Source: a virus
Taxonomy: Duplodnaviria > Caudoviricetes
Reading direction: 5' to 3' (one strand)
DNA length: 64,000 nucleotides
IMG/VR virus record: IMGVR_UViG_3300034061_006011
In this document: in pieces, positions 16,788 through 38,645 of the stretch
How the letters are laid out: every line of letters begins with the position of its first letter
Position numbering within the stretch: the stretch's first letter is position 1
Position numbers and translations under genes: made by a program
Notes under the pieces: generated by a model
Told to the model about the DNA's origin: nothing
The model's database searches: none
What the model saw: only the letters and a program-made list of their open reading frames with translations

Positions 16788-17270
16788 ATGATCACCTTCA
16801 AACAATTTTTAGAAAATAAAGAAGACTTAGAACTACCACCAGAAATGGGAACCGCTCCAATACCAGATGGATGCGTAAGACTCTATCATCAAACAAATCC
16901 AGAAAATGTTCCATCAATTAAACAAAATGGCATAACTAAATCTTTGTCAACAGGAAAATCGCACCACGAACCATCTGTAATCTGGGCTGCAAGAAAACCA
17001 TTCTATAACATCAAATCAGACCTAGCTACTATCGAATTCTTCATCCCAGAAGAACAATTCTCACCACCAAGCTACGTCTTGGTAGACGTAATACCACCAG
17101 AACAAATTATAGGCATACACGAAAGATGGACCGACCTCGCAAGACACCTAATAAAAGATTACCCAGAACCAAATCAATCAAAAATAGACTTCTGGATGTC
17201 TATCGACGATAATTACAAAAAAGCTACCCAATTTTATGTCAACTATATGAAATCAATAGATAAATTGTAA
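16788..17270 (+). CDS. tagged ADP-ribosyltransferase-fold protein (MITFKQFLEN)
   Basis: LYHQT...SIKQNGI...IWAA pattern of ART/Tpt1-like NAD-binding domains. Confidence 0.6.
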   Translation: MITFKQFLENKEDLELPPEMGTAPIPDGCVRLYHQTNPENVPSIKQNGITKSLSTGKSHHEPSVIWAARKPFYNIKSDLATIEFFIPEEQFSPPSYVLVDVIPPEQIIGIHERWTDLARHLIKDYPEPNQSKIDFWMSIDDNYKKATQFYVNYMKSIDKL

Positions 17271-17289
17271 ATATTATCATAAATACAAC

Positions 17290-18603
17290 ATGACCACTTT
17301 CAAACAATGGCTGTTAACCGAAGCAATAATTGACAAAGAAGAATTTATTAAAGAAATTAATTCTACAGAACATTCTTATTTACACTTACAACTGTCCCCT
17401 AATGGAAAAATATTAATTACAAGCCCTCATATTGAAACCAATATAATAAAAATTGGGAAAAAATATAAGTCAATCGAAGCAACAGGATCATTACAACCAT
17501 TATCTAAAAATTTTGCTAATGTAATTAACACAATTAAAAAAATATATCCTGAAATATTAAACTATGTCGTTTCCGAGACAGGAGTTGCAGGATTTAGAAA
17601 TCCTTCAACAAAACATAGAACAGTACAATATTGGCTTGACCAACAAAGAACAGAACCAAAAGTAAATCTACCAAAATATTTTTATCACGGCACCTCTACA
17701 AACTTATATAATATGTTCATCAAAGAACAAGGATTGGTCCCAAGACAAATATCTGGAAGTTCTGGATCTTATGGTGCATCATCAGTCAGAGCCTTATCAA
17801 GAGGAATGTTTAATTATCTTACAATTCATCCTGATTATGCTACAAGAGAAGCAGCTACACAAGCAGCAAAAAATCATGGCGGTCTTCCACTCATATTAAA
17901 AATAAATTCATATGCAATAGATCCAACAAGACTTTTTCCCGATGAAGACGCAAGAGCAGAAACTTGGGAAGAATCCATGCACAAGATAGGAACAGTTGCC
18001 TATAAAGGCATTATCCAAAACTCAAGCATCATGCCATATGAAATTAGCAAAGATATCAATAGATTAAAATGGTTGCCTTATGAAGAAACACCAACAATGA
18101 ATCATCCCACATACGAAAAATTAATTACAACAAAAGAACATAGAAACAAAGATTCCGTATTCTTTGCACTTTATGATAAAGAAATAATTGATAGAAAAGG
18201 TAGCTTACTCAAACCAATAACCAGCGAAGAATTTAACGAAATAATAAAGAATGCAAAATGGGCAACTAATGCATGGTTAATTTGTGAATCAATAAACGAA
18301 GGTATATTGGAAAAGACAAGAAATTCTGTTATCAGCAGAAGTAATTTCGATAAAGAAGCACAAAAAATTGTACTTGATTTGTATAAGCATGATATTTTTG
18401 ATGAATATCTGCAAATGAAAAGCGAATACATTAGAATATATGATTACGCAATACAAGTAATAATAAAATATGCTAAATACCTTGGCAAAAATTCATGGAA
18501 AGAAATAGATCAAAAATTAAGAACTGTTTACTCAAGAAACAATAGAGATCAAAATGACCACTTATATTCCACTGAAGCTAAAGAAATATTAGGAATTAAA
18601 TAG
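17290..18603 (+). CDS. tagged ART-fold (Tpt1/KptA-like) protein (MTTFKQWLLTEA)
   Basis: FYHGTS...IKEQGLVPR...YLT...A..AA...GG.PLILKI. Confidence 0.7.
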   Translation: MTTFKQWLLTEAIIDKEEFIKEINSTEHSYLHLQLSPNGKILITSPHIETNIIKIGKKYKSIEATGSLQPLSKNFANVINTIKKIYPEILNYVVSETGVAGFRNPSTKHRTVQYWLDQQRTEPKVNLPKYFYHGTSTNLYNMFIKEQGLVPRQISGSSGSYGASSVRALSRGMFNYLTIHPDYATREAATQAAKNHGGLPLILKINSYAIDPTRLFPDEDARAETWEESMHKIGTVAYKGIIQNSSIMPYEISKDINRLKWLPYEETPTMNHPTYEKLITTKEHRNKDSVFFALYDKEIIDRKGSLLKPITSEEFNEIIKNAKWATNAWLICESINEGILEKTRNSVISRSNFDKEAQKIVLDLYKHDIFDEYLQMKSEYIRIYDYAIQVIIKYAKYLGKNSWKEIDQKLRTVYSRNNRDQNDHLYSTEAKEILGIK

Positions 18604-18715
18604 AAAGATTACCCGCAACTCCCGAAGAAGCAAGTATGTGGAAACTCAAAACTCTTAACCACCCATTCCATTTCAAATTCATTTCAGAAAATCCACAAGT
18701 AATCATAAATAATAC

Positions 18716-19867
18716 ATGACTAATTTTAAACAATGGCTACTTACAGAAGAAATTGACCGTAATGGCAAAACGGCAATAGTTTATCATAGAACCGACGAAA
18801 TTGAAAATGCACTTTCAATACTCCAATATGGATCTAAATCCGATTTTGATAAAGACCATCCTATGTTATCCGATTTTGATAAAGACAATCAACCGGGGCA
18901 GATGTTCTTCGTCTTTGATCTTGAAAGCACTATGGGAAAGGCAGAAACTTACGGAAATGCTATAATAAAATTCAAAGTCACTGATCTTGATAAATATCTT
19001 GTATTCCATACAAATATGGCTAAAAGAATTCATGGAGAGAATTACAAATTAAGTGATCAACTTAGAGAATTCAAAATTTCACAAAAATTCACACAAAATT
19101 ATCTTGATGATATAGACGAAAAACTAGTCACAAATCAATATAACCACATCACTGACGTTTATTCTTTTTTAATTGAAAACGAATGGATAAAAAGTAAAAT
19201 AAAAGGCGTTATTTATTGGGGATATGATGATGGATATTGCTTGCTTAAATTCCGTCCAGTAAATGACGGAACAATTACTATGATCGGATATGCAACCGAC
19301 CCACACAAAAATTATGAAAAAGATGGGATAATAAAAAGCAAAAATAGAATGAAAGATTTAGAAAAATCTCAAAATTGGACAACATCAACAGATATAGCCA
19401 AATTAAAATCTATTGATAAAACCCCATACGGACAAAGAGAAAAATATATTAAAATAAAAGAAAAAAATCCAACTGTCTTGGAAATAATCAAAAAACTAAA
19501 ACTAGAGAAAAATATTGAAAAAGATGAATTATTAAAAATAATGAATTCTGTTAAAAATAAAAACGCATTTGCAAAAATAATTATACAAAATAAAAAAGAA
19601 TTAACAGTTGATGATATTTCATTGTTAATGAAATATTCAACAGACTCATGGGAAATTTGTTCATTTATACTTAAGAATAGACCAGAATTGTCTGATTTTA
19701 TTTCTAGAGCTATGTTTCCTAAAACCTACAGACCAATGGACACTCAAACCAGCAAGGTATGGTCTGATTATACATCAGATCCAGACAGAAGACCAATAGA
19801 CACTAAAACCGGCGAAAGACCAGAATTGTCTGATTTTATTTCTAGAGCTATGCGTTCCCGTAAATAA
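18716..19867 (+). CDS. tagged PARP-like ART protein, paralog of 22638-23720 (MTNFKQWLLTEE)
   Basis: VYHRT; shares VTDLDKYLVFH.NMAK.IHG.NYK.SDQL with its paralog. Confidence 0.65.
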   Translation: MTNFKQWLLTEEIDRNGKTAIVYHRTDEIENALSILQYGSKSDFDKDHPMLSDFDKDNQPGQMFFVFDLESTMGKAETYGNAIIKFKVTDLDKYLVFHTNMAKRIHGENYKLSDQLREFKISQKFTQNYLDDIDEKLVTNQYNHITDVYSFLIENEWIKSKIKGVIYWGYDDGYCLLKFRPVNDGTITMIGYATDPHKNYEKDGIIKSKNRMKDLEKSQNWTTSTDIAKLKSIDKTPYGQREKYIKIKEKNPTVLEIIKKLKLEKNIEKDELLKIMNSVKNKNAFAKIIIQNKKELTVDDISLLMKYSTDSWEICSFILKNRPELSDFISRAMFPKTYRPMDTQTSKVWSDYTSDPDRRPIDTKTGERPELSDFISRAMRSRK

Positions 19868-19910
19868 AATTTATTTAACAATTAATTAAATATACACCAA
19901 TAAATACAAC

Positions 19911-20561
19911 ATGATCAACTTTTATCAATTCCTTGAATTTGCTAGAGAAATCATCCCAATAGGTACTGTTACTGACCCAAATGTCAGAAAATCGCTGGCA
20001 GGAAGAAGAATTAATTCCGCTGATGCGAAAAAATATTTGGATCAAGGTTTCGTTTATGTCTATAGATTTGAAGGATTCGCACCACGTCTCAGGAAGTATT
20101 CAAGAGGAGTTTGGTATTTTATAGGAGATGAAAATGATACTAAACTTGATCTGGGCAAATGCTTATTAGCATGGAATAAAGTACATGCACTTCACCTATT
20201 AGGATTTCCCAACAATTATATATTGTTTTATATTAATCCTGCAAATTTTTTACGACTTGCTGCTGACCAAAATTTAAACAATAGATATATAAATCAAGTA
20301 ATAAAATCACACTTTAATGAAAATGGACCTACCAAAGATTTCAATTCTTATGATAAATTAGATTTTCCCATGACTGGTATCGCAAAAAGTCAGGGATATG
20401 ATACTATCATGTTAGTTGCAGAAGGTGATTCCAAATCAGCAGAATTAATCGATCTTAGAACAGAAGTAACTCCTAAATCATTAGAAGATTATTTAAAAGA
20501 AATAGATGTAGATGAAGTTATGAAAGATTTAAAGAAAAAAAAGGGGAAAAAATCTACATGA
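19911..20561 (+). CDS. tagged protein, possible ART fold (MINFYQFLEF)
   Basis: VYVYRF start strand and GYDTI...E-LI end typical of ART-like domains; weak. Confidence 0.45.
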   Translation: MINFYQFLEFAREIIPIGTVTDPNVRKSLAGRRINSADAKKYLDQGFVYVYRFEGFAPRLRKYSRGVWYFIGDENDTKLDLGKCLLAWNKVHALHLLGFPNNYILFYINPANFLRLAADQNLNNRYINQVIKSHFNENGPTKDFNSYDKLDFPMTGIAKSQGYDTIMLVAEGDSKSAELIDLRTEVTPKSLEDYLKEIDVDEVMKDLKKKKGKKST

Positions 20562-20617
20562 TCACTTTCAAATAATCACCGTAACAACTCCAGTTAATTC
20601 TAATAAAATTAATATAA

Positions 20618-21301
20618 TTATTCTGAATCTGAGGAATAAGTGCCTATACCATAGTACTCTTTAATCTTATCAATCGCATCATTGTAAAGAATTGTTGCAT
20701 AAGAAGGACGAATATTCAATTCTGCCGCAATATCTTTATTCATTACATCCTCAGACCTGCGAGTCAAAATAATCTTCTGCCTTGGACTCAAATTGGGAAC
20801 CCTTAACAAATCCTCTAATCCCATCTTTTCAGACGATGGATCATCAGCAAATGAACTAGGCTCATGAATAGTACCAACTGTGTTAAAACTCACATTTCCT
20901 TTCTCACTCTTCCAATTATTACGCCTTATAATGTCCACAACAGATGCTCTAATCATGTTTGTAATCAAACCACCAATTAAATTGTAATTCAATTTTCTAT
21001 TTCTTATTTTTTTTTCAACCGTATTGTGAACCCTCAGCAAAGTCCTGTTGATAATGTCCTCTTCATCAACAATGTTTCTTATAACCATTCTACGCTGATA
21101 AGGCAAAAGACTATTCCTAAAACAATTTCTTATATTATTGTCCAATCTATCATAAAACTTTTCCTTCTTACCCAAATTATCAGAATACCATAAAAATAAA
21201 TTCTCCAAATTCCTCTTACACTTAAAAATTATCTCGGCTGCTTCTGGATCTACAGATTCATGAAAATCTCTATTAATAACATATTCAAAAAATGTTTTCA
21301 T
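20618..21301 (-). CDS. tagged ECF-like sigma factor (MKTFFEYV...HES)
   Basis: region-2-like EDIINRTLLRV...IRASVVDIIRR; region-4 HTH LSPRQKIIL...KDIAAELNI. Confidence 0.7.
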   Translation of the reverse strand: MKTFFEYVINRDFHESVDPEAAEIIFKCKRNLENLFLWYSDNLGKKEKFYDRLDNNIRNCFRNSLLPYQRRMVIRNIVDEEDIINRTLLRVHNTVEKKIRNRKLNYNLIGGLITNMIRASVVDIIRRNNWKSEKGNVSFNTVGTIHEPSSFADDPSSEKMGLEDLLRVPNLSPRQKIILTRRSEDVMNKDIAAELNIRPSYATILYNDAIDKIKEYYGIGTYSSDSE

Positions 21302-21381
21302 AATAAACTATATATTCCACTAAACAAAAAAATCACACCACATCTCTATAAATTAAATCCACAAATAAGCATAAATACTAC

Positions 21382-21762
21382 ATGATCACTTTCAAACAAT
21401 TCCTAGAATCCTACAGAATGGAAGACCAAACCTTCTCCGATAACAACGGCACCTACTCCGTACCACAAATAGTCAACTACGCAACAGAAAACAAAACAAT
21501 AAAAGAAATGCCATTAGAACCCCTACTACATAACCTAGAACCATCCCCACACGAAGAAGGTGATGAACTACCCGGTCATCCAGAATTTATCAAAAGAACT
21601 GAACTAACTGACCTCAAATACCCAATCATTATCGTCAAATACCCAGACGGTCTCTTTATCGCTGACGGTGTCCATAGACTAGCAAAAGCTCACTCCCTAA
21701 ACCAACAAACTATCAAAGCTTATGTCCTAGACCAAAATGAATTAGAACAATTCAAAATGTAA
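21382..21762 (+). CDS. tagged ParB/Sulfiredoxin-like domain protein (MITFKQFLES)
   Basis: YPIIIV...IADGVHRLAKA. Confidence 0.7.
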   Translation: MITFKQFLESYRMEDQTFSDNNGTYSVPQIVNYATENKTIKEMPLEPLLHNLEPSPHEEGDELPGHPEFIKRTELTDLKYPIIIVKYPDGLFIADGVHRLAKAHSLNQQTIKAYVLDQNELEQFKM

Positions 21763-21768
21763 CATTCT

Positions 21769-22563
21769 TCAAGACTCAATCCAATCCTGTCCATTATGAA
21801 CTAAAATTTTAGTCACAGGTAAAGAACTTTCTCCTGTGTACTTCAAAGCCATAGGATTCTTTCCATAATTATTCTGGAAAAACCAAGATTCCAGTTTTTT
21901 ATGCAATTCTGGATTCCGATCCTGATGTCCATAATAAAAAGGAGCTATATTAGATGCTGCTCCTGCACTGTAATAAGGGTTATCATTCAACAAAGGATCA
22001 CGAACACTTCCTATTCTACCGGGAAATTTACCATACAAACTTCTGGCTACAGGATTCTTCTTGATAGTCGAAAATGGAATTGGCTCGGCATCAATACCAG
22101 TCAACTTTTCTCCAACTTCATCCTTTGACAAATATTCTTTTGTCTTGTCTGTTAAATTAACATCTCCCAACTTGTTCAGCTTTCCAACTCTTTTAGAAGC
22201 ATAAGTAAGAATGTCCTTCGCATGATTCTCAATGTCCAAATCCCATTCACCAAAATCAATATTTGGAACATCTATTACAACAACTATAGGATTACCCTCT
22301 AAAGAACCCTTCAAACCATACAATTCTCTGTTCATACGAGCCAAAGCATGAGTTTTTGCGCTTTCATCCGATGTCCAAAGAAATAAACCACCTCCCTGAC
22401 CATGACCGTATCCCGAAGACCTAGCACCATCCCTCTTAAATGAATTCAATACCTCATCGTTCTTTCCAGAACTAGTTCCATGATAAAACCTGAAAGGACC
22501 ATTAATAACAATATCATGTGAATAACCTTCATCATGTCGAAGCCACTCTTTGAAATTATCCAT
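21769..22563 (-). CDS. tagged ART-fold protein (MDNFKEWL...DE)
   Basis: FYHGTS...GHGQGGGLFLWT. Confidence 0.65.
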   Translation of the reverse strand: MDNFKEWLRHDEGYSHDIVINGPFRFYHGTSSGKNDEVLNSFKRDGARSSGYGHGQGGGLFLWTSDESAKTHALARMNRELYGLKGSLEGNPIVVVIDVPNIDFGEWDLDIENHAKDILTYASKRVGKLNKLGDVNLTDKTKEYLSKDEVGEKLTGIDAEPIPFSTIKKNPVARSLYGKFPGRIGSVRDPLLNDNPYYSAGAASNIAPFYYGHQDRNPELHKKLESWFFQNNYGKNPMALKYTGESSLPVTKILVHNGQDWIES

Positions 22564-22637
22564 AATGTTTATATATAAAAAATCCAGAAAAATATCAACC
22601 CTCTACACAAATTAAATCAACATACATAAATATAACC

Positions 22638-23720
22638 ATGAACTTTAAACAATGGCTCATCAACGAAGAAATTTATCCCAATAACACCGCTACGGTTTAT
22701 CATAGGACTGAACACGCTAGCAATATTGAAAGAATTCTACAATCTGGATACAAAACCGGTGGTGGTCAAATGTATGGTAATGGTCTTTACACTACCATCT
22801 CACTAGAAAGCCAATTTAAAAGTTATATGAGCATATATGGTAATTATGTTATCAAGTTTCATGTCACCGATCTTGATAAATATCTTGTATTCCACCCCAA
22901 TATGGCTAAAAAAATTCATGGTCAAAATTACAAAATCAGTGATCAATTGAAAAATTTTAATTTAGCAGGAAGCTTTACAGAAGATAAACTTAGACAATAC
23001 GATGAAGCACAAGAAAAAACCGGAACTGTTAATGGTAATAATGCAGTTAAATTTTGTAGAGAAAATATTGGGATACTGCATACAATAAAAGGCATTATTT
23101 ATTATGGAACAAATGATGGCTATTGTTTAGTAAAATATAAACCAGTGAACGATAATACAATAAAAATGCTTGGTTACGCAGAAGCACAAGTTGAAGATAT
23201 CAATAAAATGAACGAACTGTACGCAAATAAAGGATGGAATACATCAACAGATAAAGCTAACATCAAAGATATACAAGATTTAGAACCAGATCAAAGAGAA
23301 AAATACGCAACAATTACTCCAAATAATTTGAAATCTGTATCAGAAATTGTAACCCTTATAAAGGATGAAAAATCTAATTTTGAAGAAATATTCGAATACA
23401 TAAAGAGAAATAAATTAATAGATCAAAAATACAAAAATACTATTGTAAGACTTATATTAAAATATAAAAAAGAAATATCCGTGGAACAATTGCTAGAACT
23501 AGTAAAATACAAAAAAGAAATCTCCATAGAAGAATTAATTGAACTAATAAATTACAAAAAAGAAATCTCCATTAAACAATTACTAGAACTAATGAAATAT
23601 ACAAACATGTCCACATCAGAAAGAGAAAAATTTATTGCAACTTACTTACCAGAAAAAGTAAATTCAATTAAACAATATGTTAACGATCCATCAAACTTTA
23701 CTTCAACACATGATGATTAA
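22638..23720 (+). CDS. tagged PARP-like ADP-ribosyltransferase (MNFKQWLINEE)
   Basis: VYHRT...ILQSGY...MYGNGLYTT; three 14-aa C-terminal repeats KYKKEIS.E.L.EL. Confidence 0.7.
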   Translation: MNFKQWLINEEIYPNNTATVYHRTEHASNIERILQSGYKTGGGQMYGNGLYTTISLESQFKSYMSIYGNYVIKFHVTDLDKYLVFHPNMAKKIHGQNYKISDQLKNFNLAGSFTEDKLRQYDEAQEKTGTVNGNNAVKFCRENIGILHTIKGIIYYGTNDGYCLVKYKPVNDNTIKMLGYAEAQVEDINKMNELYANKGWNTSTDKANIKDIQDLEPDQREKYATITPNNLKSVSEIVTLIKDEKSNFEEIFEYIKRNKLIDQKYKNTIVRLILKYKKEISVEQLLELVKYKKEISIEELIELINYKKEISIKQLLELMKYTNMSTSEREKFIATYLPEKVNSIKQYVNDPSNFTSTHDD

Positions 23721-23766
23721 TATCAACCCTCTACACAAATTAAATCAACATACATAAATACACATC

Positions 23767-24048
23767 ATGAAACTTAAAGATAAAGCTACCATCAAAACAA
23801 ATTTTCCAGAAGCTGACTTTTGGATCGTTCGCAGAGGATCAGAATCAGACGTTGGTAAACCTACCAAAAAATTTAGCGAATATCACATAGGAATTAAAGT
23901 TACATCTGATGACCTATTACCAGATTATCTCTACTACGCAATGACATATCTCTACAACCAAGGATACTATAAACCATTAGCCACAGGAATGTCAAGCTTG
24001 GTAAACATACAAGTTAAAGATGTTAAAAATATTAAAATGGGCGAATAA
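23767..24048 (+). CDS. small protein resembling a type I R-M HsdS target-recognition fragment
   Basis: ADFWIVRRGS..VGKP...IGIKV...LPDYLYY...G...NI pattern; recognised from memory. Confidence 0.55.
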   Translation: MKLKDKATIKTNFPEADFWIVRRGSESDVGKPTKKFSEYHIGIKVTSDDLLPDYLYYAMTYLYNQGYYKPLATGMSSLVNIQVKDVKNIKMGE

Positions 24049-24099
24049 TAAAACCACACTACCTCTACACAAATTAAATCAACATACATAAATATAACC

Positions 24100-24693
24100 A
24101 TGAACTTTAAAGAATTTATTTATAATGAAACATCAACAGCTAGCCTAGACCTCGTTGGCTATAACTGCCGTCAAATAGAACCAGACACAGATCCACACTT
24201 CGGTCAAGTACATGTCTCTGGTCCCAGCGAAGAAGACATGAGTGCTGAAGTATTCGTCAAAAGATATATCGAAAATATCATAGAAGAAAAGGACTACTAC
24301 GAATTCATAAAAGAATATGGAGACGATCCATATGAGAAAAATCAATCACTCACAACAGAACGCCAACAATGGATGGTAAAAGCTGCCAATTTTCTTAACA
24401 AAAAAGGATACAGAATGCTATTCTGCGGCGATAAACCAGAAAAAATCTATGGAGAAAATTGCTACGCAGTCTATATCGATAAAACAAAAATTATTAATAT
24501 CACACGTCGTGACTATTACCCAATGACAGACGAAATAGACGAAATCACAGAAGAAACTATCATCACTTGGAAAATACCATACAACCCAATCCTCGTAAAT
24601 ATCAAAACATTACCAACAAAATTACCAAAACCAATTCCACTCATCAGACCAAGAAGACGATCAGATCGAAATGGAGATCACGAATTCCTATAA
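24100..24693 (+). CDS. tagged hypothetical protein (MNFKEFIYNE)
   Basis: late cassette upstream, tag motif. Confidence 0.65.
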   Translation: MNFKEFIYNETSTASLDLVGYNCRQIEPDTDPHFGQVHVSGPSEEDMSAEVFVKRYIENIIEEKDYYEFIKEYGDDPYEKNQSLTTERQQWMVKAANFLNKKGYRMLFCGDKPEKIYGENCYAVYIDKTKIINITRRDYYPMTDEIDEITEETIITWKIPYNPILVNIKTLPTKLPKPIPLIRPRRRSDRNGDHEFL

Positions 24694-27713: not shown

Positions 27714-27851
27714 AATACATATCTATCCCACAAAAACAAAAACCCTACCACCCCCAAAAAAATACCCCGGCGCATTTTTTTAAACCCCATACCTTCATAT
27801 ATTTTTAACCTATTACCACATATACACAATACCATGTCACAACATTTCTGT

Positions 27852-27975
27852 AAAATGAAATAAAATTATTCCAGATTTTTAGAAAATGAAATAAAATTAT
27901 TCCAGATTTTTAGAAAATGAAATAAAATTATTCCAAAATTTTAGAAAATGAAATAAAATTATTCCAAAATTTTTT
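27852..27975. repeat. 4 x 31-bp AT-rich tandem repeat
   Basis: AAAATGAAATAAAATTATTCCA(G/A)A(T/A)TTTTAG. Confidence 0.95.
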
Positions 27976-28156
27976 AAATAAATCAAGATGAACAACAAAA
28001 GGGAGCCATGATGGCGGGGGGATACCCCCCTACCCCACTCTCTTTTGGGGAATGTCAAGTGCAATTATGTTATGGCAACTTTGTAACATAATTAAAAAAC
28101 CCCTATAAAACAAGTGCGGCGCAATTGTGTTATCACGCCGCCTGCCTATTCTGTTA

Positions 28157-28339
28157 TCACCTTACCCACTTCATAGTTATGTTAGCCTGAACCTTTGGCT
28201 TATCCCCCTCCCATTCAGTATTGATATTCACTTCTGTTATCTGCCTTGTCGGCTTGCGGTCATGGTGTTGAACGTGTTGGCAACCTACCGACAACACCAC
28301 AACCAATAACATAATTAACCTTACCATGGTCATCATCCT
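28157..28339 (-). CDS. small putative lipoprotein
   Basis: hydrophobic signal ending in LSVG-C lipobox; start approximate. Confidence 0.55.
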   Translation of the reverse strand, partial: RMMTMVRLIMLLVVVLSVGCQHVQHHDRKPTRQITEVNINTEWEGDKPKVQANITMKWVR

Positions 28340-28524
28340 TGAATGCCGATTGATCCCCACACTACTATTATCGGCATTCAACCAACCAGACTTGAACCAA
28401 CCTAAAGATTCTTCCTAACCACATTTTAGTATCCTAAGTTTGTCCGCATTGTCTCAATTGAAATAACAATAAAAAAACCCCCTTCTCCGGGTGGAGAAGG
28501 GGGCTGTTGATTATTGTTAGCCTA

Positions 28525-29190
28525 TCATTCAGATAACAGAATCATTTCTAATTCCCCCCCACGGATTCCCATTGAAGGGAATCCCTTGGCTGAATAAATT
28601 CTTTCGATTGCGTCTTCGGACGTTAGCCCGAAGACGTTTTGCAATTGTTGGAACAGGCACTTCAAATGGCGATCCAGTGCCAACTTTGTTATCACAATAA
28701 CAAAGTTTTCAATGGTGCCGTTAACACGGCACGCCGTCCCAGTGGGACGGTTGATTTCAAAATTAACCGTCCCAAGACGGTTCACATCCCACTTATAACG
28801 CCCACTGGCGGATTGATCCGCCGGTGTTGGTAGTGGGTGTTGACAATTACAATAAGTATCCTGATCCGCATTGAAATAGTCCGCCCAATCAATGGGCGTT
28901 CCAATGCACGCCCAAAGATGCCCAAACGAATGGGCGATTTTACGGGACACCCGCAATTGTGCGGGTGTCATTTTTGAAGTCTCAAAACTGAATTCATCGG
29001 GATACCGAAGTGGCTCGCCACTCCAGTGGCGTGAACAGTCTCGCTTGCCCCGTAGGGCAAGCGATGCGATTTCAGCGGCATTGGGTGCCGCAGCGTTCTT
29101 CCTGATCCAGTGGTTGAGATACGCAACACGACCGGTTGCGGTTGCGGTTGCGGTTGCGGTTGCGGTGGCGGTGGCGGTTGAAATGGTCAT
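28525..29190 (-). CDS. hypothetical protein with N-terminal (TA)n microsatellite
   Basis: start moved to 29190; 8 x CGGT(T/G)G at 29133-29180. Confidence 0.7.
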   Translation of the reverse strand: MTISTATATATATATATATGRVAYLNHWIRKNAAAPNAAEIASLALRGKRDCSRHWSGEPLRYPDEFSFETSKMTPAQLRVSRKIAHSFGHLWACIGTPIDWADYFNADQDTYCNCQHPLPTPADQSASGRYKWDVNRLGTVNFEINRPTGTACRVNGTIENFVIVITKLALDRHLKCLFQQLQNVFGLTSEDAIERIYSAKGFPSMGIRGGELEMILLSE

Positions 29191-29552
29191 GTTCGATACT
29201 CTCATGCCCGTTTCAGGTACGGGTGGACCTTGGCTAAGGTGAACCACAACATGCGGTTCACCTACGACTATCTTAACATCATCCCCAACTAGGTCAAGAG
29301 AAAATCCACCCAAGAGAAAAGATTCCTCCCATCCACATTTTAGTATCCTAGTGTTGTCTCAATTGTCCAGCAATAGGATTCCTCCCATCCACATTTTAGT
29401 ATCCTAGTGTTGTCCACATTGTCCAGCAATAGGATTCCTCCCATCCACATTTTAGTATCCTAGTGTTGTCTCAATTGTATCAATTCAGATAACAATAAAA
29501 AAACCCCCTTGACTTGTCTGTCAAGGGGGTGGTTGATTAAGTTAGCCGATTG

Positions 29553-29759
29553 TTATTTAATTTTGTCGAGCCACATATCGATGATTCCAGAAACCAGTTT
29601 CCTTTCCTTTGGTTTCATTCTTAGAAACATTTTTAGATGTTCAACGATTTTCTCGAATCGTTCCAGCTCATTTTTGATTCTTTTAAGTTGTTTGTCTACC
29701 CTCTTTGGGCGAGAAACCTTTCCATCAACAATGCGGCTTGATTCGTTTTCAGTTCTCAT
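29553..29759 (-). CDS. small coiled-coil hypothetical protein
   Basis: own promoter, leader and terminator. Confidence 0.65.
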   Translation of the reverse strand: MRTENESSRIVDGKVSRPKRVDKQLKRIKNELERFEKIVEHLKMFLRMKPKERKLVSGIIDMWLDKIK

Positions 29760-30006
29760 GGTATTCGATCCATACGGTTTTCAGGGGAACCGGGAACCTA
29801 GAAGCGGCACACTATGCGCCGCCTCATGCATTCATTCTACCATCATCCCCAACTAGGTCAAGGGAAAAGAAAAGATTCCTCCCATACACATTTTAGTATC
29901 CTAGTGTTGTCTCAATTGTCCAGCACAATATCAAAATTGAAATAACAATAAAAAAACCCCCTTGACTTGTCTGTCAAGGGGGCTGTAGTTTTGTTATCTG
30001 ATATTG

Positions 30007-30273
30007 TTATTTTGTGAACGCCTCCAGTATTGCCTTCATGGCAACGTCTCTTATTTCACTCTTAGGCAAACGCATGATTGCCCGCATACAAGAGATTTTA
30101 TTCTTGTAGCTTTTGAGTAGGTCATCCAATGGCGTTTTCTCCCTTGCGTGGGGTATTTCCGGCAGATTAAACCGCTGTGGCTTATCGCACTTAATGTATT
30201 CCTTGTATTCCTTTTCCCGCTTGTCGGCGGTTGGAGAAACGGTTGCGGCAACGGCGTTACGCTCAATTTTCAT
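30007..30273 (-). CDS. hypothetical protein
   Basis: own promoter and leader shared with 29553-29759. Confidence 0.65.
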   Translation of the reverse strand: MKIERNAVAATVSPTADKREKEYKEYIKCDKPQRFNLPEIPHAREKTPLDDLLKSYKNKISCMRAIMRLPKSEIRDVAMKAILEAFTK

Positions 30274-30585
30274 AGCAGTCGATCCAACCGGTTTTCAGGG
30301 GAACCGGGAACCTAGAAACGGCACACTATGCGCCGCCTCATGAAGTCATTCTAACAACGTCCCCAACTAGGTCAAGAGAAAATCCACCCAAGAGAAAAGA
30401 TTCCTCCCATCCACATTTTAGTATCCTAAAGTTGTCCGTATTGTATCTTAAGAGGAATTCCTCCCATCCACATTTTAGTATCCTAAAGTTGTCCGTATTG
30501 TATCGTAATAGGAATTCCTTCCATCCACATTTTAGTATCCTAAAGTTGTCTTAATTATCTAGAACGATATCAAAAAAGGGTGTAA

Positions 30586-31785
30586 TAGTGTTAGCCGATA
30601 ACGAAATAGCGGAGATAACGAAATGGCGGGAATAGTGTTAGCCGATAACGAAATAGCGAAGATAACGAAATGAAGGTAATAGTGTTAGCAGATAACGAAA
30701 TTAAAGATATGAAAACAAAAAAACCCCGCAAGCCTTTCGACTTGCGGGGCAGATTGACCGGCAGGGGTTGTCATGTTGTCGTGTGTGATGTAATCTTGAT
30801 CACATTATTGGAAACACCTTGATAAACCGGAGACATCTTACCCGCATGAGTGAACTCAATTCCGTAATTGGCACCGACACGGAATTCGGTTTCCGTTCCG
30901 GGTTCATAAGCCACGAAACCGATATTCGTTGCCTCATGAACAAAGTTCACGATGCGAGTTGGTTTCCCATATCCCCAGCGTACTGGTGAAACCCCTACGC
31001 ATATCACTTCAATATTGTAATTACCCGGCTCAATCGCTTGAGTGATTGGCGTTGGCAATTTAATAGCTGCAATTGGTGCAAGTGGTGCAATTGGTGCAAT
31101 TGGTGCCACTGGTGGCACTTGCGCCACTGGTGCCACTGGTGGCACTTGCGCCACTTGCGCCAACGCTGCCCTAAGCGTTGCCAATTGTTCGGGGTTGAAA
31201 CCCCGAACAAGATCAAGCATCGACTGGCTTGCATCGATTGCCACTGGTGCGGAAACGGACTTGGCGTTCTTGCGGGGTGCCATGGTCATAAACTCCATGC
31301 CAGTTTCAGGATACTGGCGGAACCGGTTAAGGTGAACCACAACATGCGGTTCACCTACAAGCATCATAGGGAAACCGTTTCACTAGGTCAAGCGAATTCC
31401 CAAGAAAGTTTCCTTACAAATTCTTAAGATCCGCGGACCCCCCCCCCTCCCATCCACATTTTAGTATCCTAAAGTTGTCTCAATTGTCCAGTCTGGTAAC
31501 AAAAAAGGAATTCCTCCCATCCACATTTTAGTATCCTAAAGTTGTCTCAATTGTTTCTAAAAAAAACAAAATTAAATTATAATATTTAATTTCATAATTA
31601 AAATAGTTATCAGATAACGAAAGTGGCAATAATGTTAGCCGATAACGGAATAGGGGAGATAACGGAAACGGTAATAGTGTTAGCGGATAACGTAAGTGGG
31701 AATAGTGTTAGCGGATAACGGAAGTGGGAATAGTGTTAGCGAATAACGGAATAGGGGAGATAACGAAATTACCGATATGAAAACA
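30586..31785. repeat. two blocks of GTTAGCNGATAACG / GATAACG repeats (30586-30712, 31605-31785)
   Basis: about 5 and 7 GATAACG copies; both blocks adjoin the same terminator. Confidence 0.9.
30771..31289 (-). CDS. hypothetical protein with AP-rich linker and beta-rich C-terminal domain
   Basis: start after GGAG at 31289; AQVPPVAPV repeats. Confidence 0.7.
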   Translation of the reverse strand: MTMAPRKNAKSVSAPVAIDASQSMLDLVRGFNPEQLATLRAALAQVAQVPPVAPVAQVPPVAPIAPIAPLAPIAAIKLPTPITQAIEPGNYNIEVICVGVSPVRWGYGKPTRIVNFVHEATNIGFVAYEPGTETEFRVGANYGIEFTHAGKMSPVYQGVSNNVIKITSHTTT

Positions 31786-31841
31786 AAAAAACCCCGCAAG
31801 CCTTTCGACTTGCGGGGCAGGATTGCCGATATGTTATTCGA

Positions 31842-32099
31842 TTATGCACCAAGCCAGATGATCTTGGTGTTCTTATTGGCAAGATGACGGGTGAGCAGGA
31901 AGACGAGATCAGTGTCTTCCTTTTTTGAAATCATCTTGATTACGTCACCGTTTCGATCAACGGTCAATTGAACCGAAGTTCCTTCAATCTGGTTCATTCC
32001 AAGGCTTGTCACCTTGGAAGTGGACAACGCTTCAACAATTGCGTTATCTACTTTTGCGTCGATGAGAACAGCAATCGAAACCTGAATATTGTTATTCAC
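31842..32099 (-). CDS. hypothetical protein
   Basis: own promoter, leader and terminator. Confidence 0.6.
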   Translation of the reverse strand: MNNNIQVSIAVLIDAKVDNAIVEALSTSKVTSLGMNQIEGTSVQLTVDRNGDVIKMISKKEDTDLVFLLTRHLANKNTKIIWLGA

Positions 32100-32359
32100 G
32101 GTAAGAATCTCAATCCGGTCTTAAGGTGAACCGGTGACCTAGGCTTGTTGAACCATTCACCAAGCCATGAACGTATTAGACCACAAACGCCAAACCACGT
32201 CAAGAGAAAATTCCAGCAGGAGAAAATTCCTTCCATCCACATTTTAGTATCCTAAAGTTGTCTCAATTGTCCAGTCTGATAACAAAATTGAAATAACAAT
32301 AAAAAAACCCCCTTGTCCGGGGGGACAAGGGGGCTGTCAATTTTGTTCTGTTATGAGAT

Positions 32360-32593
32360 TCACCACCAAGCGGTAGCGTTCTCCTTGCTCACTTCTGAAA
32401 TCTTGATCAATATCGAAACGAGACTATCACGAAGCTCGTCATTCGATTGATCATTTCTGAATTCTTCAACGAGTACCTTGTACTTGGCTACAAGCTTTTC
32501 AATCTTTGAAATAACATTGAGAAGCTGTTTGCTTGGAACCTTGGAAGCTTGGGCTTCCTCTTCTGCCGTCATGATTCTGTTATCGTTGTTCAT
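32360..32593 (-). CDS. small coiled-coil hypothetical protein
   Basis: GGAG RBS, start at 32593. Confidence 0.6.
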   Translation of the reverse strand: MNNDNRIMTAEEEAQASKVPSKQLLNVISKIEKLVAKYKVLVEEFRNDQSNDELRDSLVSILIKISEVSKENATAWW

Positions 32594-32983
32594 TTTGTTT
32601 TCTCCAGTGCTTTGCGACACCATGCCGCATTGAGCAAACACAATTTACCACAACCAACCGCAGCTTGTCAACAACACTATTTGCCCCTATTACGGTAGGA
32701 GATATACAGCCGTGTATATGTAGGGATTAGTATGCAAGATATGCAACGCCGATGGTGAACCGTCGATAAGCCGAACGGATTAGATAAGCATAAGACGGAA
32801 CCGTCCCATCCACATTTTAGTATCCTAAAGTTGTCTCAATTGTCCACGCAGATATCAAAACGACGATATGCCCCATCCACATTTTAGTATCGTAAAGCTA
32901 GTGGAATAGTAGCTTATTAAATAACAATAAAAAAACCCCCTTCTCCGGGTGGAGAAGGGGGCGGTTGATTATGTTAGCCTAAC

Positions 32984-34084
32984 TTATTTGGCTTCTTGAT
33001 TTACCTTTTCAAGAGACTTCAGAATCATTGCAAGCTCATGGCGGCTTGCACAATTCTTAGCACCTTCAATATGTCCTGCAAAATCTGAAATGAACTTCCG
33101 TGCTTCAGATTTTGCATCACATTGTTTTTCAAGGAATAACAAAAGTCCATCGATTTCCTCCCTAGACAATCCCTTTTGCCGCTTTTCGGCGGTTGGGGAA
33201 ACAGTTGGTTGGTTCAATGGTGGCAGTGGTTGACGTGATGGAGGAAGGACAGAAGAAGGAGTCTTCGGGTCCACTTTAGGTGGCATTGCTGCACCTGAAA
33301 GATTGATAGGTGGAAGATCTTTCTTCTTCTCTTCGATCTTAGCTACGGCTTTGGCTTCTGCTTTTGTGGCAGCAGAAGGAGCAATACCAGAATTGATTCC
33401 TTTATCGGCAAGCTTCTTGTCGATAACGTCAATAATTTTATCGTTGAGCTTCTTCTTCTCTTCCTTGCTCTTGTCCATTTCTGAAATCACTTCGGTTGCT
33501 GCGGCAATGTCCGCCATGACTTCAGGAGGAACAGCCTTTCCATTCTTCCTTTCTAACAAACGAAAAGCGGAAGACTTCGTATATTCTCCTTCATGGATAG
33601 ACAATTGAATTGCTTCGGGCAACTTGAGCAATTTCAAAAAGTTTGATACTTCAGAATCTGAAATATTAAAATGCGCTGCTATGGTCTTTTGTGTCCAATT
33701 GAATTCCTCCTTAGCCCGTAGCATATCCTTAGCCCGATCAATGAATGAAGGATTGTGATATGAATTCTCAACAATCTGAATTACGAAATGATCTTCTCTG
33801 GTCCTTGCCTTGTAAACAAGAGCTGGAATCTCCTTTAATCCAGCTTCTTTAGCTGCCATGGTACGGCGAATGCCGCCCATGACTTCAAAAGTGCCGTCTT
33901 CCTTTTCATTCAGAATGATATTCTGAAGAACTCCATGAATCTTAATGTTATTTGCCAATTCTGTGATTGACGCTGGGTCCATTCCAGCCTTCCGATTCCT
34001 TGACAAATCATAATTGATTTTGTCAAGAGCAACGATCATCCGAACAGAAGCAGGTGAAGAAGAAACCTTAGATGCCTTAGCCAT
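32984..34084 (-). CDS. parB: ParB/Spo0J-family partition protein
   Basis: SIxELAxNI..HGVLQNI, GGIRR box II variant, EN, HTH WTQKTIAAHFNISDSEVSNFLKLLKLP; start after GGAG. Confidence 0.85.
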   Translation of the reverse strand: MAKASKVSSSPASVRMIVALDKINYDLSRNRKAGMDPASITELANNIKIHGVLQNIILNEKEDGTFEVMGGIRRTMAAKEAGLKEIPALVYKARTREDHFVIQIVENSYHNPSFIDRAKDMLRAKEEFNWTQKTIAAHFNISDSEVSNFLKLLKLPEAIQLSIHEGEYTKSSAFRLLERKNGKAVPPEVMADIAAATEVISEMDKSKEEKKKLNDKIIDVIDKKLADKGINSGIAPSAATKAEAKAVAKIEEKKKDLPPINLSGAAMPPKVDPKTPSSVLPPSRQPLPPLNQPTVSPTAEKRQKGLSREEIDGLLLFLEKQCDAKSEARKFISDFAGHIEGAKNCASRHELAMILKSLEKVNQEAK

Positions 34085-34702
34085 TTCAAAATCTCCTATT
34101 TTGTTTTCTTTCAGGATCAAACTGTTCTCACCTGAAAGAAACCGTTCCGCCCTTTAGCGGTGAACCCATTAAACCACAACCGGCTTAACGTGTCAAGTGT
34201 TTTTTTTCCTCGGCAAAACAAGCGTTTTTAACACTTGCAACTTCAGAATTGAACACGGTTGGCGTTGTGTTTTCACAAATCCACCCAAACCACACCACCA
34301 TCAAGGACACCCTTAGTATACGAAAAACACCGAGGAAAATCAAGTACCTCTTATATATTGATATCATAGGCGCGCGCCCCCTTCCATCCACATTTTAGTA
34401 TCCTAAACCCATCTTTAATTGATACTAAAATGTGAATGGGGATGGGCGGTTTTATACAAGTATAAAATCATATCAATCGTTTGATTCGATTCCTTCCATC
34501 CACATTTTAGTATCCTAAAGTTGTCTCAATTAGTTTTGCTCAAGTATCAACTAAGTCTCAATTGCGTTTTTTCAACTATCTGTAAAGGGGAAATTACATT
34601 TCATAATCATTCCTCCATCCACATTTTAGTCTCAATTAAAGATGTGCTTAGGATACTAAAATGTGGATGGAACCGGACAGTCTTATACTAATACAAAATC
34701 AA

Positions 34703-34766
34703 TTCATTCGTTTCATTTGATTCATTCATTTGATTCATTCGTTTGATTCATTCGTTTGATTCGTTT
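34703..34766. repeat. 13-mer AT-rich tandem repeat TTTGATTCATTC(G/A)
   Basis: three full units at 34716, 34729, 34742 plus partial flanks. Confidence 0.9.
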
Positions 34767-34882
34767 CTTTCCCATCCACATTTTAGTCTACAAGAAGTGT
34801 AGCTTATTAAATAACAATAAAAAAACCCACCTGAGATGTCTCAGGTGGGTGATGAATTTTAGATTGTTAGAGTCTTATTTGA

Positions 34883-35808: not shown

Positions 35809-36054
35809 TCAACTTACACGACATAAACGATACACAAATGGCTTGGTTCGACCCCTTTTGTCCTTGTATAAGTCCCTTTTCTTCGTGATCACAAGCGTTT
35901 CTTCGCCTACGTCGATCTCTTGAGCATGTTTTCCACGCCCATAAGGGATTAGAATAGAGAAAATGTCGTCATTACCATTGATTTCATCGGTTATGACTTG
36001 TCGATTAACGCATTGGATGATATGGAACACCCGATTAGCGAATTCATTCATCAC
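35809..36054 (-). CDS. early hypothetical protein
   Basis: ATGA-coupled to upstream ORF. Confidence 0.55.
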   Translation of the reverse strand: MMNEFANRVFHIIQCVNRQVITDEINGNDDIFSILIPYGRGKHAQEIDVGEETLVITKKRDLYKDKRGRTKPFVYRLCRVS

Positions 36055-36248
36055 TTTTCTCCCTTATCTGTGAATTTTGTGTTCTCACAAGGGATGCAAT
36101 TGTGAATTGTACCATCTTCCATAACGAAATCTTGCACTTCTACAAGATCCTTCACATACGTTCTAACAGACGCACGGAACGTCTGCTTGTCTTTGTATAG
36201 TCCAAACCCTTTTCGGACAACAAAAGTAAACAGCTTCATCGTTTCCAT
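36051..36248 (-). CDS. early hypothetical protein
   Basis: start moved to 36248 after GGAGG. Confidence 0.6.
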   Translation of the reverse strand: METMKLFTFVVRKGFGLYKDKQTFRASVRTYVKDLVEVQDFVMEDGTIHNCIPCENTKFTDKGEK

Positions 36249-36674
36249 CTTCAATTCCTCCATTGCAGGTGCGATTTGCTCCTGTTTACACATTGTAACA
36301 AAAATATTTTGTTATGTCAAGAAAAATTTTCAACTAGGCGCATACATATTATTTCATACAACGTGCATATTGCACCTATTAGACACAAAGAGAGTATGAA
36401 TATGTAATAGCGGGCGTTTGACCCGCTTCCTTTCCTATCCTTCACTTGGATAGGTTTTTTTATTTGTATAATGCTTCGCTCCATTATTTTCCACAAATCC
36501 CCATTTCATCCCACCTTATAAAACCTGCCTTACATTATATCTACTTTTCTCAATCCTGATATGTGACTACTTTCCATATCATTTATGTAATTGGTTTGAA
36601 ATAGTTTTAATTATTCCATAAAAAAACCCCTTGGGGATTAGCCAAGGGGTTGATATGGATAGTGTTGATATGTG

Positions 36675-37004
36675 TTATTCTTCTTTAAATGGTAATTCTT
36701 TGTGGTGCCGAATACGAAGGAGTTTAGATTCTGAATCGGTTAAAGAGTTATTGCAGACTACTCTAACTTCATTAAGTTGGAGTTTTTCCATCAACTCCTT
36801 TAATTGGATCTCTTCCGTTATTGGTTGTACCATTGCAAATGGTACATAGGGAAGATCATCTACTTCTCCTATCTGTGTCCCATTTGGTGTTTCATACTCC
36901 ACCTGATCACCTGCAACGAACTCCTGAGACACGAACTTGTTGTCTTCAAATCTTTGGATAACAAAACCGTGCGTAATCTTATAAACCATCTCTTGATACT
37001 CCAT
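36675..37004 (-). CDS. early hypothetical protein with C-terminal DUF932-derived fragment
   Basis: ends VVCNNSLTDSESKLLRIRHHK, matching 39569-40549. Confidence 0.7.
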   Translation of the reverse strand: MEYQEMVYKITHGFVIQRFEDNKFVSQEFVAGDQVEYETPNGTQIGEVDDLPYVPFAMVQPITEEIQLKELMEKLQLNEVRVVCNNSLTDSESKLLRIRHHKELPFKEE

Positions 37005-37167
37005 TTTGTTTTAGGTGAGTGACGACATGTCTTTCACCTACGACAATTGTAGCAGATATTTGGCTTGGTGTCAAGTAATTTTTTGTTTATGTTTTGTTTG
37101 TATTTACATAAAAAAAACCCCTTGGGGATTAGCCAAGGGGTTGATATGGATAGTGTTGATATGGTGG

Positions 37168-37782
37168 TTATGAGTATTGTGGACGATAGTTGCCGGTATG
37201 TGATTCGCCGGGGAATCGTTCATTTGTGATACCATATTCTGTTGGACCATCTGGTTCCGGCAGATAGTCAGCATCTAATCCTCTTGCTTCTAACCAGTCA
37301 AGAGATTCCGATAGGTGTTTATCGTGTTGTCGTTTGCTTGCTTCATTCAGTTCTTCTGCAAAATCCTGCATTTCCTGTCTAATCTGATCGGCTTGTTCGC
37401 CATTTAGACATTCATAAGACTCTTGAAGGAAGCTTTGATGATACCACCAACCACCTTCTTCTGCTCCTCCGTAGGACTGGTAGTGTTCATATAAAGATAT
37501 GAACTTTGATGGTTGTTGAATTCTGTTTTGTGAATCACATTCGCATGTGTTCTTCTTGCCTTCGCATCGTTCACCACCGCCTTCATATTTAATACAAATT
37601 CCATCTTCATTAAGCTCAGGAGATTCGCATTCACATGTTTGCCAGTAAATTTCCTTATTACAATTTTGGCAAACATGTGGTGGTCGTTTGATTTCTTCTT
37701 CTCTGTTTTCTTCACCGAATACTTTCTTCAGATTATACTTAGCGATGATTTTGCTGAATGATTCTGCTTTATACTTAGGCAT
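37168..37782 (-). CDS. acidic Cys-containing early protein
   Basis: CxxC/CxC clusters; start after GGAGTATCAAG. Confidence 0.7.
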   Translation of the reverse strand: MPKYKAESFSKIIAKYNLKKVFGEENREEEIKRPPHVCQNCNKEIYWQTCECESPELNEDGICIKYEGGGERCEGKKNTCECDSQNRIQQPSKFISLYEHYQSYGGAEEGGWWYHQSFLQESYECLNGEQADQIRQEMQDFAEELNEASKRQHDKHLSESLDWLEARGLDADYLPEPDGPTEYGITNERFPGESHTGNYRPQYS

Positions 37783-37943
37783 CTTGATACTCCATTGGTT
37801 TGAAAGCAAGCCATTTGCTTTCGTGGATGTATTGTATCAGGTATTTGGTTTAGTGTCAATGTTTTTTTTTGGTATTATGTTTGCATAAAAAAACCCCCTT
37901 GGGTGTTATCCAAGGGGGTTGATATGGTTGGTGTTGATATGTG

Positions 37944-38645
37944 TTATTCTTGTTCTTGTTTAAGTTGTTGTGAGTTATATTGTGCCCAGAGGAGTGGGCA
38001 ATTGGTTTTAATCCAATTTTGTACTCTTGCGATTTCATCAAGACGATTGTGCCAATGTGATTTCATATAATCATTATCTTGATCGAAGGTATGTCTTCCT
38101 CTGGCATATCTTTCTGCACGTTGTTCTCCTGAGTCATGGTTCTCCATTTCGGAGTATGCATTATTGATCTGATCTTCGAGGTACTTGATGAAGTTTAGAT
38201 TAACTTCAATCTCTCCGCACTTCCTTAGAAGTCTGAGTGTGGCATCTTCGAGCAACTTCCTTTCCTTTTCATTCTTAAGAAGAACGAAGTCAACCATTTG
38301 CATTAGTACAGCACGTCCGTCAATTTCGTGGTCGTTAGCCTCATCGAACTTTTCCTTCAGACTTTCAAAGTCTGTAATTTCTTGAAGATAAGCAATAATC
38401 TCAGGGACTTCGTTGCTGTTGTGGAAACGGAGTCCTCGGCTGAGACTTTTGATGACATCTTCGATGTTTGCTTCTTTTGTAATTGTTCTACAAGAGAAGT
38501 TCCCACTTTCTGGATCACCGTAATCATAATCTTCTACGATGAAGATTTGATGTTGAAATTTATCCTTAATCCTTTGAATTTCCTTGTTGATTGTCTCTTG
38601 ATGGATATTGCGCTCTTCGATAGTCATTTCAGGCATATTAGGCAT
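37944..38645 (-). CDS. early hypothetical protein
   Basis: 233-aa ORF in a full cassette. Confidence 0.7.
   Translation of the reverse strand: MPNMPEMTIEERNIHQETINKEIQRIKDKFQHQIFIVEDYDYGDPESGNFSCRTITKEANIEDVIKSLSRGLRFHNSNEVPEIIAYLQEITDFESLKEKFDEANDHEIDGRAVLMQMVDFVLLKNEKERKLLEDATLRLLRKCGEIEVNLNFIKYLEDQINNAYSEMENHDSGEQRAERYARGRHTFDQDNDYMKSHWHNRLDEIARVQNWIKTNCPLLWAQYNSQQLKQEQE

Follow-up and report, generated by a model that had tools for sequence, protein, structure and literature searches.

A conserved 20-bp repeat upstream of the genes of a ParB-encoding island in a T4-like lake phage

The window analysed here is a 64,000-nucleotide stretch from a virus of the Caudoviricetes (IMG/VR record IMGVR_UViG_3300034061_006011). 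It contains a 6.9-kb island (28.1-34.9 kb) that encodes a ParB protein and whose intergenic regions hold 19 copies of a 20-bp repeat, which we call the family-A core. We read these cores as operator-like, predicted protein-binding sites of an island regulon tied to an orphan ParB system, and assign this reading a probability of about 0.45. A binding site of an island regulon is the best reading because the invariant block is found at every island promoter and at none of about 25 other early promoters of the phage, with spacings that follow the helical turn.

Copies of the core and their setting

On the gene strand the core reads GGATACTAAAATGTGGATGG, on the plus strand CCATCCACATTTTAGTATCC. 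A search that allowed three mismatches returned 19 copies with 0-2 mismatches, all within 28415-34791, where shuffled sequences gave an expectation of 0.01; the count of about 19 repeats in an earlier sequence-only reading of this DNA is thereby upheld. The mismatch spectrum is bimodal: 13 copies have no mismatch, two have one and four have two, then no copy is found in the window at three to five mismatches (there are no decayed members), and the six matches at six mismatches are at chance level (1-13 in shuffles). All copies are intergenic and 17 of the 19 lie on one strand, co-oriented with the minus-strand genes; the two reversed cores are at 34420-34439 and 34651-34670. Tandem cores are spaced by 56, 57 or 67 bp, so the period of 56-57 bp first proposed is right for part of the array and has to be widened to include 67 bp.

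Two kinds of copy can be told apart. Thirteen of the 19 are 'full' units, in which about 25 bp of common flank lies upstream of the core (e.g. 32806-32850 of the window, minus strand), and six have the core only: five in the gap upstream of parB, including both reversed copies, and the one at 32873-32892. Since these six have nothing but the core in common and two are reversed, the conserved entity is the 20-bp core and not a longer duplicated unit. The unit of about 40 bp described earlier is therefore too long for the invariant part, which measures only 20-22 bp. Across 95 distinct sequence contexts from 27 loci the conserved stretch is one continuous block of about 22 bp, GGATACTAAAATGTGGATGGGA, in which 13 positions are invariant, while the flanks vary (core flanks differ by 40-50%). 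No dyad symmetry, i.e. no 13-16-bp palindrome, was found in the core. Small peptides starting at an ATG inside the core were considered and dismissed, being variable in length and not conserved.

Confinement of the repeat to 6.4 kb holds in the window and in related sequences. The exact 20-mer was present in 17 metagenome contigs, every one of which maps to the island, and in the related contigs L145 and L146, each 20 kb long, the 18 and 20 cores respectively keep to the corresponding zone. In IMG/VR the exact 20-mer gave 0 matches and a degenerate 14-base pattern only single chance matches; among GTDB genomes there was one chance match, in a Segetibacter metagenome-assembled genome. DNA searches of phages (INPHARED) and plasmids (PLSDB) returned nothing meaningful, and Rfam gave sub-threshold matches only, due to terminator hairpins.

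The window is part of a large, uncultured T4-like lake phage of about 238 kb: a ParB identical in protein sequence is encoded on a 237,814-bp contig, and the window DNA is present across many lake-water metagenomes. Its large terminase has T4-type domains. Such a terminase implies headful packaging of permuted genomes, in which no fixed end enters first, so that the coupling of the repeats to DNA entry once suggested is unlikely. Plus-strand genes at 15-24 kb and 57 kb have ATAAATA boxes 11-13 nt 5' of their start codons; these ATAAATA/CTAAATA boxes (15418-24100 and 57372) are late promoters of the T4 type that sit nearly on the ribosome-binding site.

Small genes occupy the minus strand from about 53 kb down to 28 kb. 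Between 35300 and 53400 they are served by about 25 almost uniform minus-strand early promoters, TTGACA-N17-TACAAT, each with a terminator hairpin and an A-rich stretch before it and a hairpin in the 5' untranslated region (UTR) and a Shine-Dalgarno (SD) sequence after it. In sequence layout these cassettes match the promoter-early stem-loop (PeSL), the mobile regulatory cassette of T4-type phages (Arbiol et al. 2010, PMC2839356; Comeau et al. 2014, PMC4122927). The 20-bp core is absent from all of them. The island is the last 6.9 kb of this region and differs from it in composition (42-45% G+C vs about 31%) and in its promoters, which form a subtype of their own, mostly TTGACC-N16-TAGAAT with an extended -10 and a T/C-rich upstream region. 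Besides ParB it contains seven or eight ORFan genes, for which Pfam, PHROGs and PDB gave no match and Atlas searches were empty too. The GC skew flips sign near 37 kb (36000-38000) despite minus-strand genes on both sides, and the AT skew of the 28-37 kb segment is unlike that of 37-53 kb.

Joint architecture

Read on the gene strand, all eight island units have the same order: an intrinsic terminator, one to three cores, a sigma70-like promoter of the form TTGAC[CAG]-N16-18-TAnnnT, a 5' UTR hairpin with SD, and the gene. The placement between a terminator and the next -35 box, claimed earlier for the repeats as a whole, applies to 13 cores in seven units; the other six are also 3' of a terminator and lie in a 420-bp gap before parB that is poor in open reading frames (ORFs), about 190 bp or more from the parB -35 box. 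The terminator-to-core distance is 41, 52 or 64 bp and that from the last core to the -35 box is 36 or 47 bp, with further values of 70-74 and 150 bp. For core, terminator and -35 box alike, neighbouring distance classes are roughly one helical turn apart, and all related contigs repeat these values.

The terminators that open the joints (28476..34850, minus strand) are at 34825-34850, 32935-32962, 32306-32335, 31791-31818, 30723-30750, 29955-29984, 29503-29530 and 28476-28505. The cluster upstream of parB (34384..34791, minus strand) has six cores arranged in a 231-bp duplication, those in gene orientation being at 34772-34791, 34615-34634, 34496-34515 and 34384-34403. Each half of the duplication consists of one forward core, short AATCAAACGAATGA-type repeats and an inverted pair of cores (reversed-N16/17-forward), and short A+T-rich 9/13-bp repeats at 34703-34772 adjoin the cores. 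The layout is identical in contigs L019, L023, L145 and L146. The promoter of parB itself, TTGACA-N17-TTTAAT, is at 34196-34168. A putative 60-aa hydrophobic ORF (34185-34367), also called in related contigs, lies between the last core and parB and overlaps promoter-like hexamers.

Downstream of parB and 3' of its terminator (32935-32962), two minus-strand cores 67 bp apart (32806..32892) comprise the core-only copy at 32873-32892 and a full unit whose core is at 32806-32825, 150 bp before a -35 box at 32671. A single core (32233..32252, minus strand) follows between the terminator at 32306-32335 and the promoter of an 85-aa gene, TTGACG-N17-TCTAAT at 32203-32175. Two cores 67 bp apart (31450..31536, minus strand) precede the promoter of a 175-aa gene at 31391-31363; here a poly-G run (31440-31452) after the proximal core varies in length between strains, giving a core-to-promoter distance of 70-74 bp, the only spacing that is not quantised. 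Farther on, also on the minus strand, come three cores with a 57-bp period (30407..30540), the last starting 47 bp before the -35 box at 30375 of an 88-aa gene; a single core with one mismatch (29882..29901), 36 bp before the -35 box at 29861 of a 68-aa gene; three cores with a 56-bp period (29329..29460), 47 bp before the -35 box at 29297 of a 226-aa gene; and the last and most diverged core (28415..28434, two mismatches), 3' of the terminator at 28476-28505 and before a 74-aa lipoprotein-like gene.

Since the cores sit upstream of genes and 17 of 19 are co-oriented with them, each repeat could itself be a promoter, either a weak host sigma70 promoter used in tandem ahead of the main one or the target of a phage factor that would define a second temporal class. 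Tandem early promoters are common in phages. Full copies hold TGGACA-N16-GATACT (9/12) and a TAAAAT hexamer, and a candidate factor lies at a distance of 7 kb (20618-21301), a 227-aa sigma4/LuxR-like protein that weakly matches GerE and sigma-70 region 4. We nevertheless consider this explanation unlikely. Conservation runs continuously over 20-22 bp and at least 10 bp past either candidate -10 box, unlike two hexamers with a free spacer; six of the 19 copies, including all the 'pure' ones near parB, have no -35-like box, and two face no gene. Matches at 9/12 are frequent by chance, 19 being expected in the island stretch. The motif is missing from the remainder of the window and from other contigs of the phage, which is not how a temporal promoter class is distributed, and the late promoters of this phage are already explained by the ATAAATA boxes. 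Because the core is continuous, asymmetric and present near parB without a -35 box, a protein-binding site fits better than a promoter.

Other identities were tried and rejected. A T4 late-promoter reading of CTAAAAT fails since the late boxes of the phage are ATAAATA and none occurs in the island. Comparison by eye with sites for IHF, CRP, LexA and NtcA gave at best half-site or one-mismatch likeness, leaving 20 invariant bases unexplained.

Exchange of cassettes between strains

Compared with the window, the related contig L005 is 98% identical in the flanks (19.6-25.7 kb) and 83-89% identical in the island. Divergence within the island is uneven: joints (the 3' half of the terminator, the repeats and the promoter) have 92-99.5% identity between strains, while the genes they enclose have been swapped or show 65-87% identity (65% for the 175-aa gene, 86.5% for the 226-aa gene and 87% for the 88-aa gene). 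In L019 two other genes replace the 226-aa cassette. Identity there spans the repeat array and promoter and breaks off immediately past the -10 box; it is regained within the 3' half of the following terminator, this breakpoint lying inside the loop. The joint with the repeat array has three cores in the window and two in L019. L145 and L146 have different cassette sets. Given this contrast between joints and genes, the joints, repeats included, behave in these alignments as PeSL-like recombination points, and the cores are retained whatever genes stand between them.

The resemblance to described PeSLs is close. Both are found in T4-like phages as a composite of stem-loop or terminator, sigma70-like early promoter, SD and start codon, both are concentrated in a hyperplastic ORFan region, and in both the gene replacements between close relatives end inside the element. 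They differ in that described PeSLs have just an A+T-rich stretch between the stem-loop and the -35 box (PMC4122927), whereas the island joints insert one to three invariant, asymmetric 20-bp cores, and do so only in one 6.4-kb sub-region that encodes ParB. The invariant core thus extends the PeSL design.

Exchange reaches into the genes at some joints. The 68-aa and 88-aa protein families (29553-29759 and 30007-30273) swap N-terminal modules (MRTENxSSRIVD...) between strains and each keep an invariant C-terminal helical hairpin; this exchange of modules means that the shared joint extends into the first codons.

With joints far more conserved than genes and cassette replacements ending in them, it could be that no protein reads the repeats, which would then be mere homology blocks, PeSL-type joints spread and homogenised by recombination and replication slippage. 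Variable copy number between strains (e.g. 3 vs 2) is consistent with this, as is the full unit, which looks like a decayed copy of an early promoter. Several features make the idea very unlikely. Twenty base pairs are too short for useful homology, yet they are the sole part kept in the six core-only or reversed copies; there are no copies with three to five mismatches although the flanks differ by 40-50%; the other approximately 25 PeSL-like joints of the phage work without the core; and spacings shift only by about one helical turn. Under the operator reading, which we prefer, homology would be a side effect, the repeats lengthening the identity available for cassette swapping while arrays gain and lose copies.

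ParB and the predicted regulon

The parB gene (32984..34084, minus strand) encodes 366 aa from MAKASK with ParB_N (2.4e-13) and HTH_ParB (1.4e-10) domains. Its nucleotide-pocket motif GGIRRTMAA (GxxRR) and a VEN motif are invariant in 11 homologues; the protein keeps the GxxRR motif of ParBs that form cytidine triphosphate (CTP) clamps, and CTP binding is predicted. Its best solved relatives are the CTP-clamp proteins Myxococcus ParB, Noc and Spo0J, KorB being weaker. ParB relatives were not found in IMG/VR, and more distant matches (35% identity or less) sit in unrelated chromosomal contexts. No deviant Walker A motif of a ParA was found in any frame of the window.

None of the 19 cores is farther from parB than 0.7 kb on its upstream or 4.6 kb on its downstream side, and the region upstream of parB has the densest core cluster and the sole bidirectional one. 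ParB is also the only island protein that matches a DNA-binding family above threshold, and no repressor-like protein was found among the others; the predicted folds of the basic 68-aa and 88-aa proteins (below) are not of a DNA-binding type either. These two facts, the only recognisable DNA-binding protein of the island and the densest, bidirectional cluster before its gene, make a ParB-centred system the most likely. That the repeats form a binding array for ParB or another regulator, as the sequence-only reading proposed, is kept as the best reading, drawn as before from the DNA sequence itself.

The island also holds a second repeat, family B. It consists of eight imperfect 13-bp palindromes, GTTAGCNGATAAC (0.19 expected), together with GATAACG half-sites; all are in one orientation and one palindrome, GTTATCAGATAAC, is perfect. 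Two minus-strand arrays about 1 kb apart flank the 175-aa gene. The first (31598..31776) has five imperfect palindromes and half-sites at 17/28-bp spacing and is followed by a patch of about 50 bp of almost pure A+T (about 31550-31600); the second (30582..30710) has three palindromes and half-sites with a 47-bp period, and the terminators before the two arrays are 97% identical. Family B is a candidate loading site, more like parS than family A is. The sequence-only reading had overlooked both this family and the PeSL-like nature of the joints that hold the cores. The island palindrome, GTTAGCSGATAAC, is very like the OB operator of KorB (TTTAGCSGCTAAA) in form.

An array next to a full-length ParB might instead be the cis part of a plasmid-like maintenance module, a ParB centromere and/or an iteron origin for an episomal carrier state, with no role in gene regulation. 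The ORF-poor 420-bp region before parB, with its inverted core pairs and 9/13-bp A+T-rich repeats, would suit such a module; family-B direct repeats, with the A+T patch next to one array, flank the 175-aa gene as iterons flank rep genes, and the GC skew changes sign near 37 kb between genes on the same strand. This is quite unlikely on our evidence. No ParA was found in the window, and no Rep-like protein in Pfam, PHROG and PDB searches of the island proteins; the arrays are conserved beside a 175-aa gene that is hypervariable (45-83% identity); and with one to three sites ahead of every one of eight promoters, spaced from the -35 box in quantised steps, the layout is that of regulation and not of a centromere or origin. 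T4-type phages, moreover, are lytic and replicate without DnaA.

The likeness of the core to a DnaA box at 7 of 9 positions, pointed out earlier, is arithmetically true and uninformative, since all parts of the window have 6-7 boxes per kb within two mismatches of TTATCCACA (7.2 per kb in the island, 6.0 per kb in the rest). There is no perfect TTATCCACA box in the window and no box of the relaxed consensus TTWTNCACA in the island. DnaA boxes are therefore improbable, their density being at chance level throughout, and so is a classical iteron origin, as searches of the island proteins gave nothing like a Rep and the sites are distributed in front of eight separate genes. On these grounds the initiator array of the sequence-only reading is not supported.

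Phage-borne ParB-family proteins with several sites are known from temperate plasmid-prophages, which have a ParA partner and a replication module. The phage-plasmid N15 has dispersed SopB centromere sites, some in gene-regulatory regions, and P1 ParB reads asymmetric box A and box B motifs at parS. The island shares with them the phage-borne ParB and the multiple sites and differs in that neither ParA nor a replication module was found in the window.

Closer parallels come from RK2 and ICEclc. In both, a CTP clamp of the ParB type is loaded at a small number of palindromes, then slides and takes effect at numerous promoters that have partner sites (PMC11790492, PMC12409273). The KorB-KorA system of RK2 (OB and OA sites; PMC11790492) resembles the island in having a ParB-family protein whose role is not purely segregational, two site families, and repeated sites tens to hundreds of base pairs upstream of many promoters of one element. 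It differs in that the promoter-proximal OA site is palindromic and that of the island asymmetric, in that neither a KorA-like partner in searches of the island nor IncC/ParA in the window was found, and in that the element here is a lytic T4-like phage; the island ParB is also closer to Pfam HTH_ParB and to the solved Spo0J and Noc than to KorB. In ICEclc the BisD clamp has two palindromic loading sites (bisS) separated by about 2 kb, comparable to the family-B arrays about 1 kb apart, and acts at many promoters, each with a motif for the partner protein (PMC12409273); BisD has a fused activator domain and a known partner, BisC, whereas the island has no recognisable partner or activator domain. 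The stoperators of cluster A mycobacteriophages (L5 gp71; PMC9283540) are likewise asymmetric, present in many copies in short intergenic regions and in one orientation to transcription. They are, however, 13 bp long, genome-wide and read by the monomeric two-domain immunity repressor of a temperate phage, in contrast to the 20-bp island sites, which are confined to 6.4 kb with no such repressor found.

In the operator reading, the cores would mark an island-specific regulon and be built into PeSL-like joints (terminator, repeat, early promoter) of the hyperplastic early region. A DNA-binding protein reading them would co-regulate the eight units by repression, timing or insulation, in a ParB-centred system of the kind seen in KorB-KorA of RK2 or BisD-BisC of ICEclc. 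Family-B palindromes would load the ParB clamp, and the family-A cores would position ParB or a partner at each cassette promoter, being either a second, asymmetric ParB site or the site of a partner that holds the clamp at the promoter.

Several observations weigh against this reading. To our knowledge, characterised ParB proteins with a helix-turn-helix (HTH) bind 13-16-bp palindromes, which makes direct ParB binding to the non-palindromic core unusual. The recognition helix varies among ParBs of related phages (e.g. SDSEVSNFLKLL vs SDAEVSKFLRLL) with both repeat families unchanged. No KorA- or BisC-like partner was found by Pfam, PHROGs, PDB or Atlas searches of the island ORFs. The small, basic 68-aa and 88-aa proteins, which are lineage-restricted, are predicted to be plain helical hairpins and not HTH or ribbon-helix-helix folds (mean predicted local distance difference test scores 81.5 and 64), a weak point of the partner model. 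Thirteen copies contain a passable sigma70-like pair, TGGACA-N16-GATACT, so that promoter activity is possible. Finally, in a footprinting attempt a single-copy joint had barely diverged between strains; by sequence, joint conservation is too high to separate selection on the core from gene conversion. As to divergence of ParB itself, a ParB at 61-65% identity still lies beside unchanged cores, the downstream DNA being 96% identical through recombination.

Other features of the island proteins were observed. An 11-residue motif, TVSPTA[ED]KR[QE]K, is common to the ParB linker and the N-terminus of the 88-aa protein (33170-33205 and 30215-30250; BLASTP E 0.002), is encoded by about 35 bp of near-identical DNA and shows no variation among ParB homologues; either a docking peptide common to both proteins or a scar of recombination may explain it. 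The 175-aa gene (30771-31298) varies more between strains than any other in the island (45-83% protein identity); its product consists of a basic N-terminal peptide, a (P-V/I-A)n linker whose length varies, and a beta-rich C-terminal domain that is conserved. The coding region of the 226-aa ORFan (28680-29070) contains at least eight different palindromes of 14-20 bp, perfect or nearly so and mostly with 4-nt centres, a packing unusual for protein-coding DNA. The 74-aa ORF at the island end (28157-28381) has a lipoprotein-like signal, a hydrophobic stretch ending in Cys, is 100% conserved between strains and might encode a lipoprotein of the superinfection-exclusion type. At the left island edge (27813-27998) there are five tandem A+T-rich repeats of 31 bp, which are kept in L019 (11046-11200).

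The island combines known kinds of element, PeSL joints and a ParB-type site array. PeSL joints account for the shuffling of accessory genes in T4-type phages and not for control beyond a default early promoter; the island suggests a portable regulon, in which every cassette gained by recombination comes under one common control. If the cores were ordinary tandem promoters, the finding would shrink to an unusually elaborate PeSL variant. In its most specific and, in our view, doubtful form, the proposal is that an orphan ParB-CTP clamp serves this lytic, T4-like giant phage as a long-range switch for a swappable early-gene island, loading at family B and being captured or positioned at the family-A cores. 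A gene landing between two joints would then automatically come under the same timer, and a KorB/BisD-like clamp regulon would be seen for the first time in a virulent phage, as a regulatory layer on top of PeSL cassette shuffling. With eight promoters and two site families within 6.4 kb, the island would offer a compact, testable model. If the ParB system does bind these sites, gene regulation by CTP clamps, so far seen in a plasmid, an integrative and conjugative element and a virulence plasmid, would extend to lytic phages.

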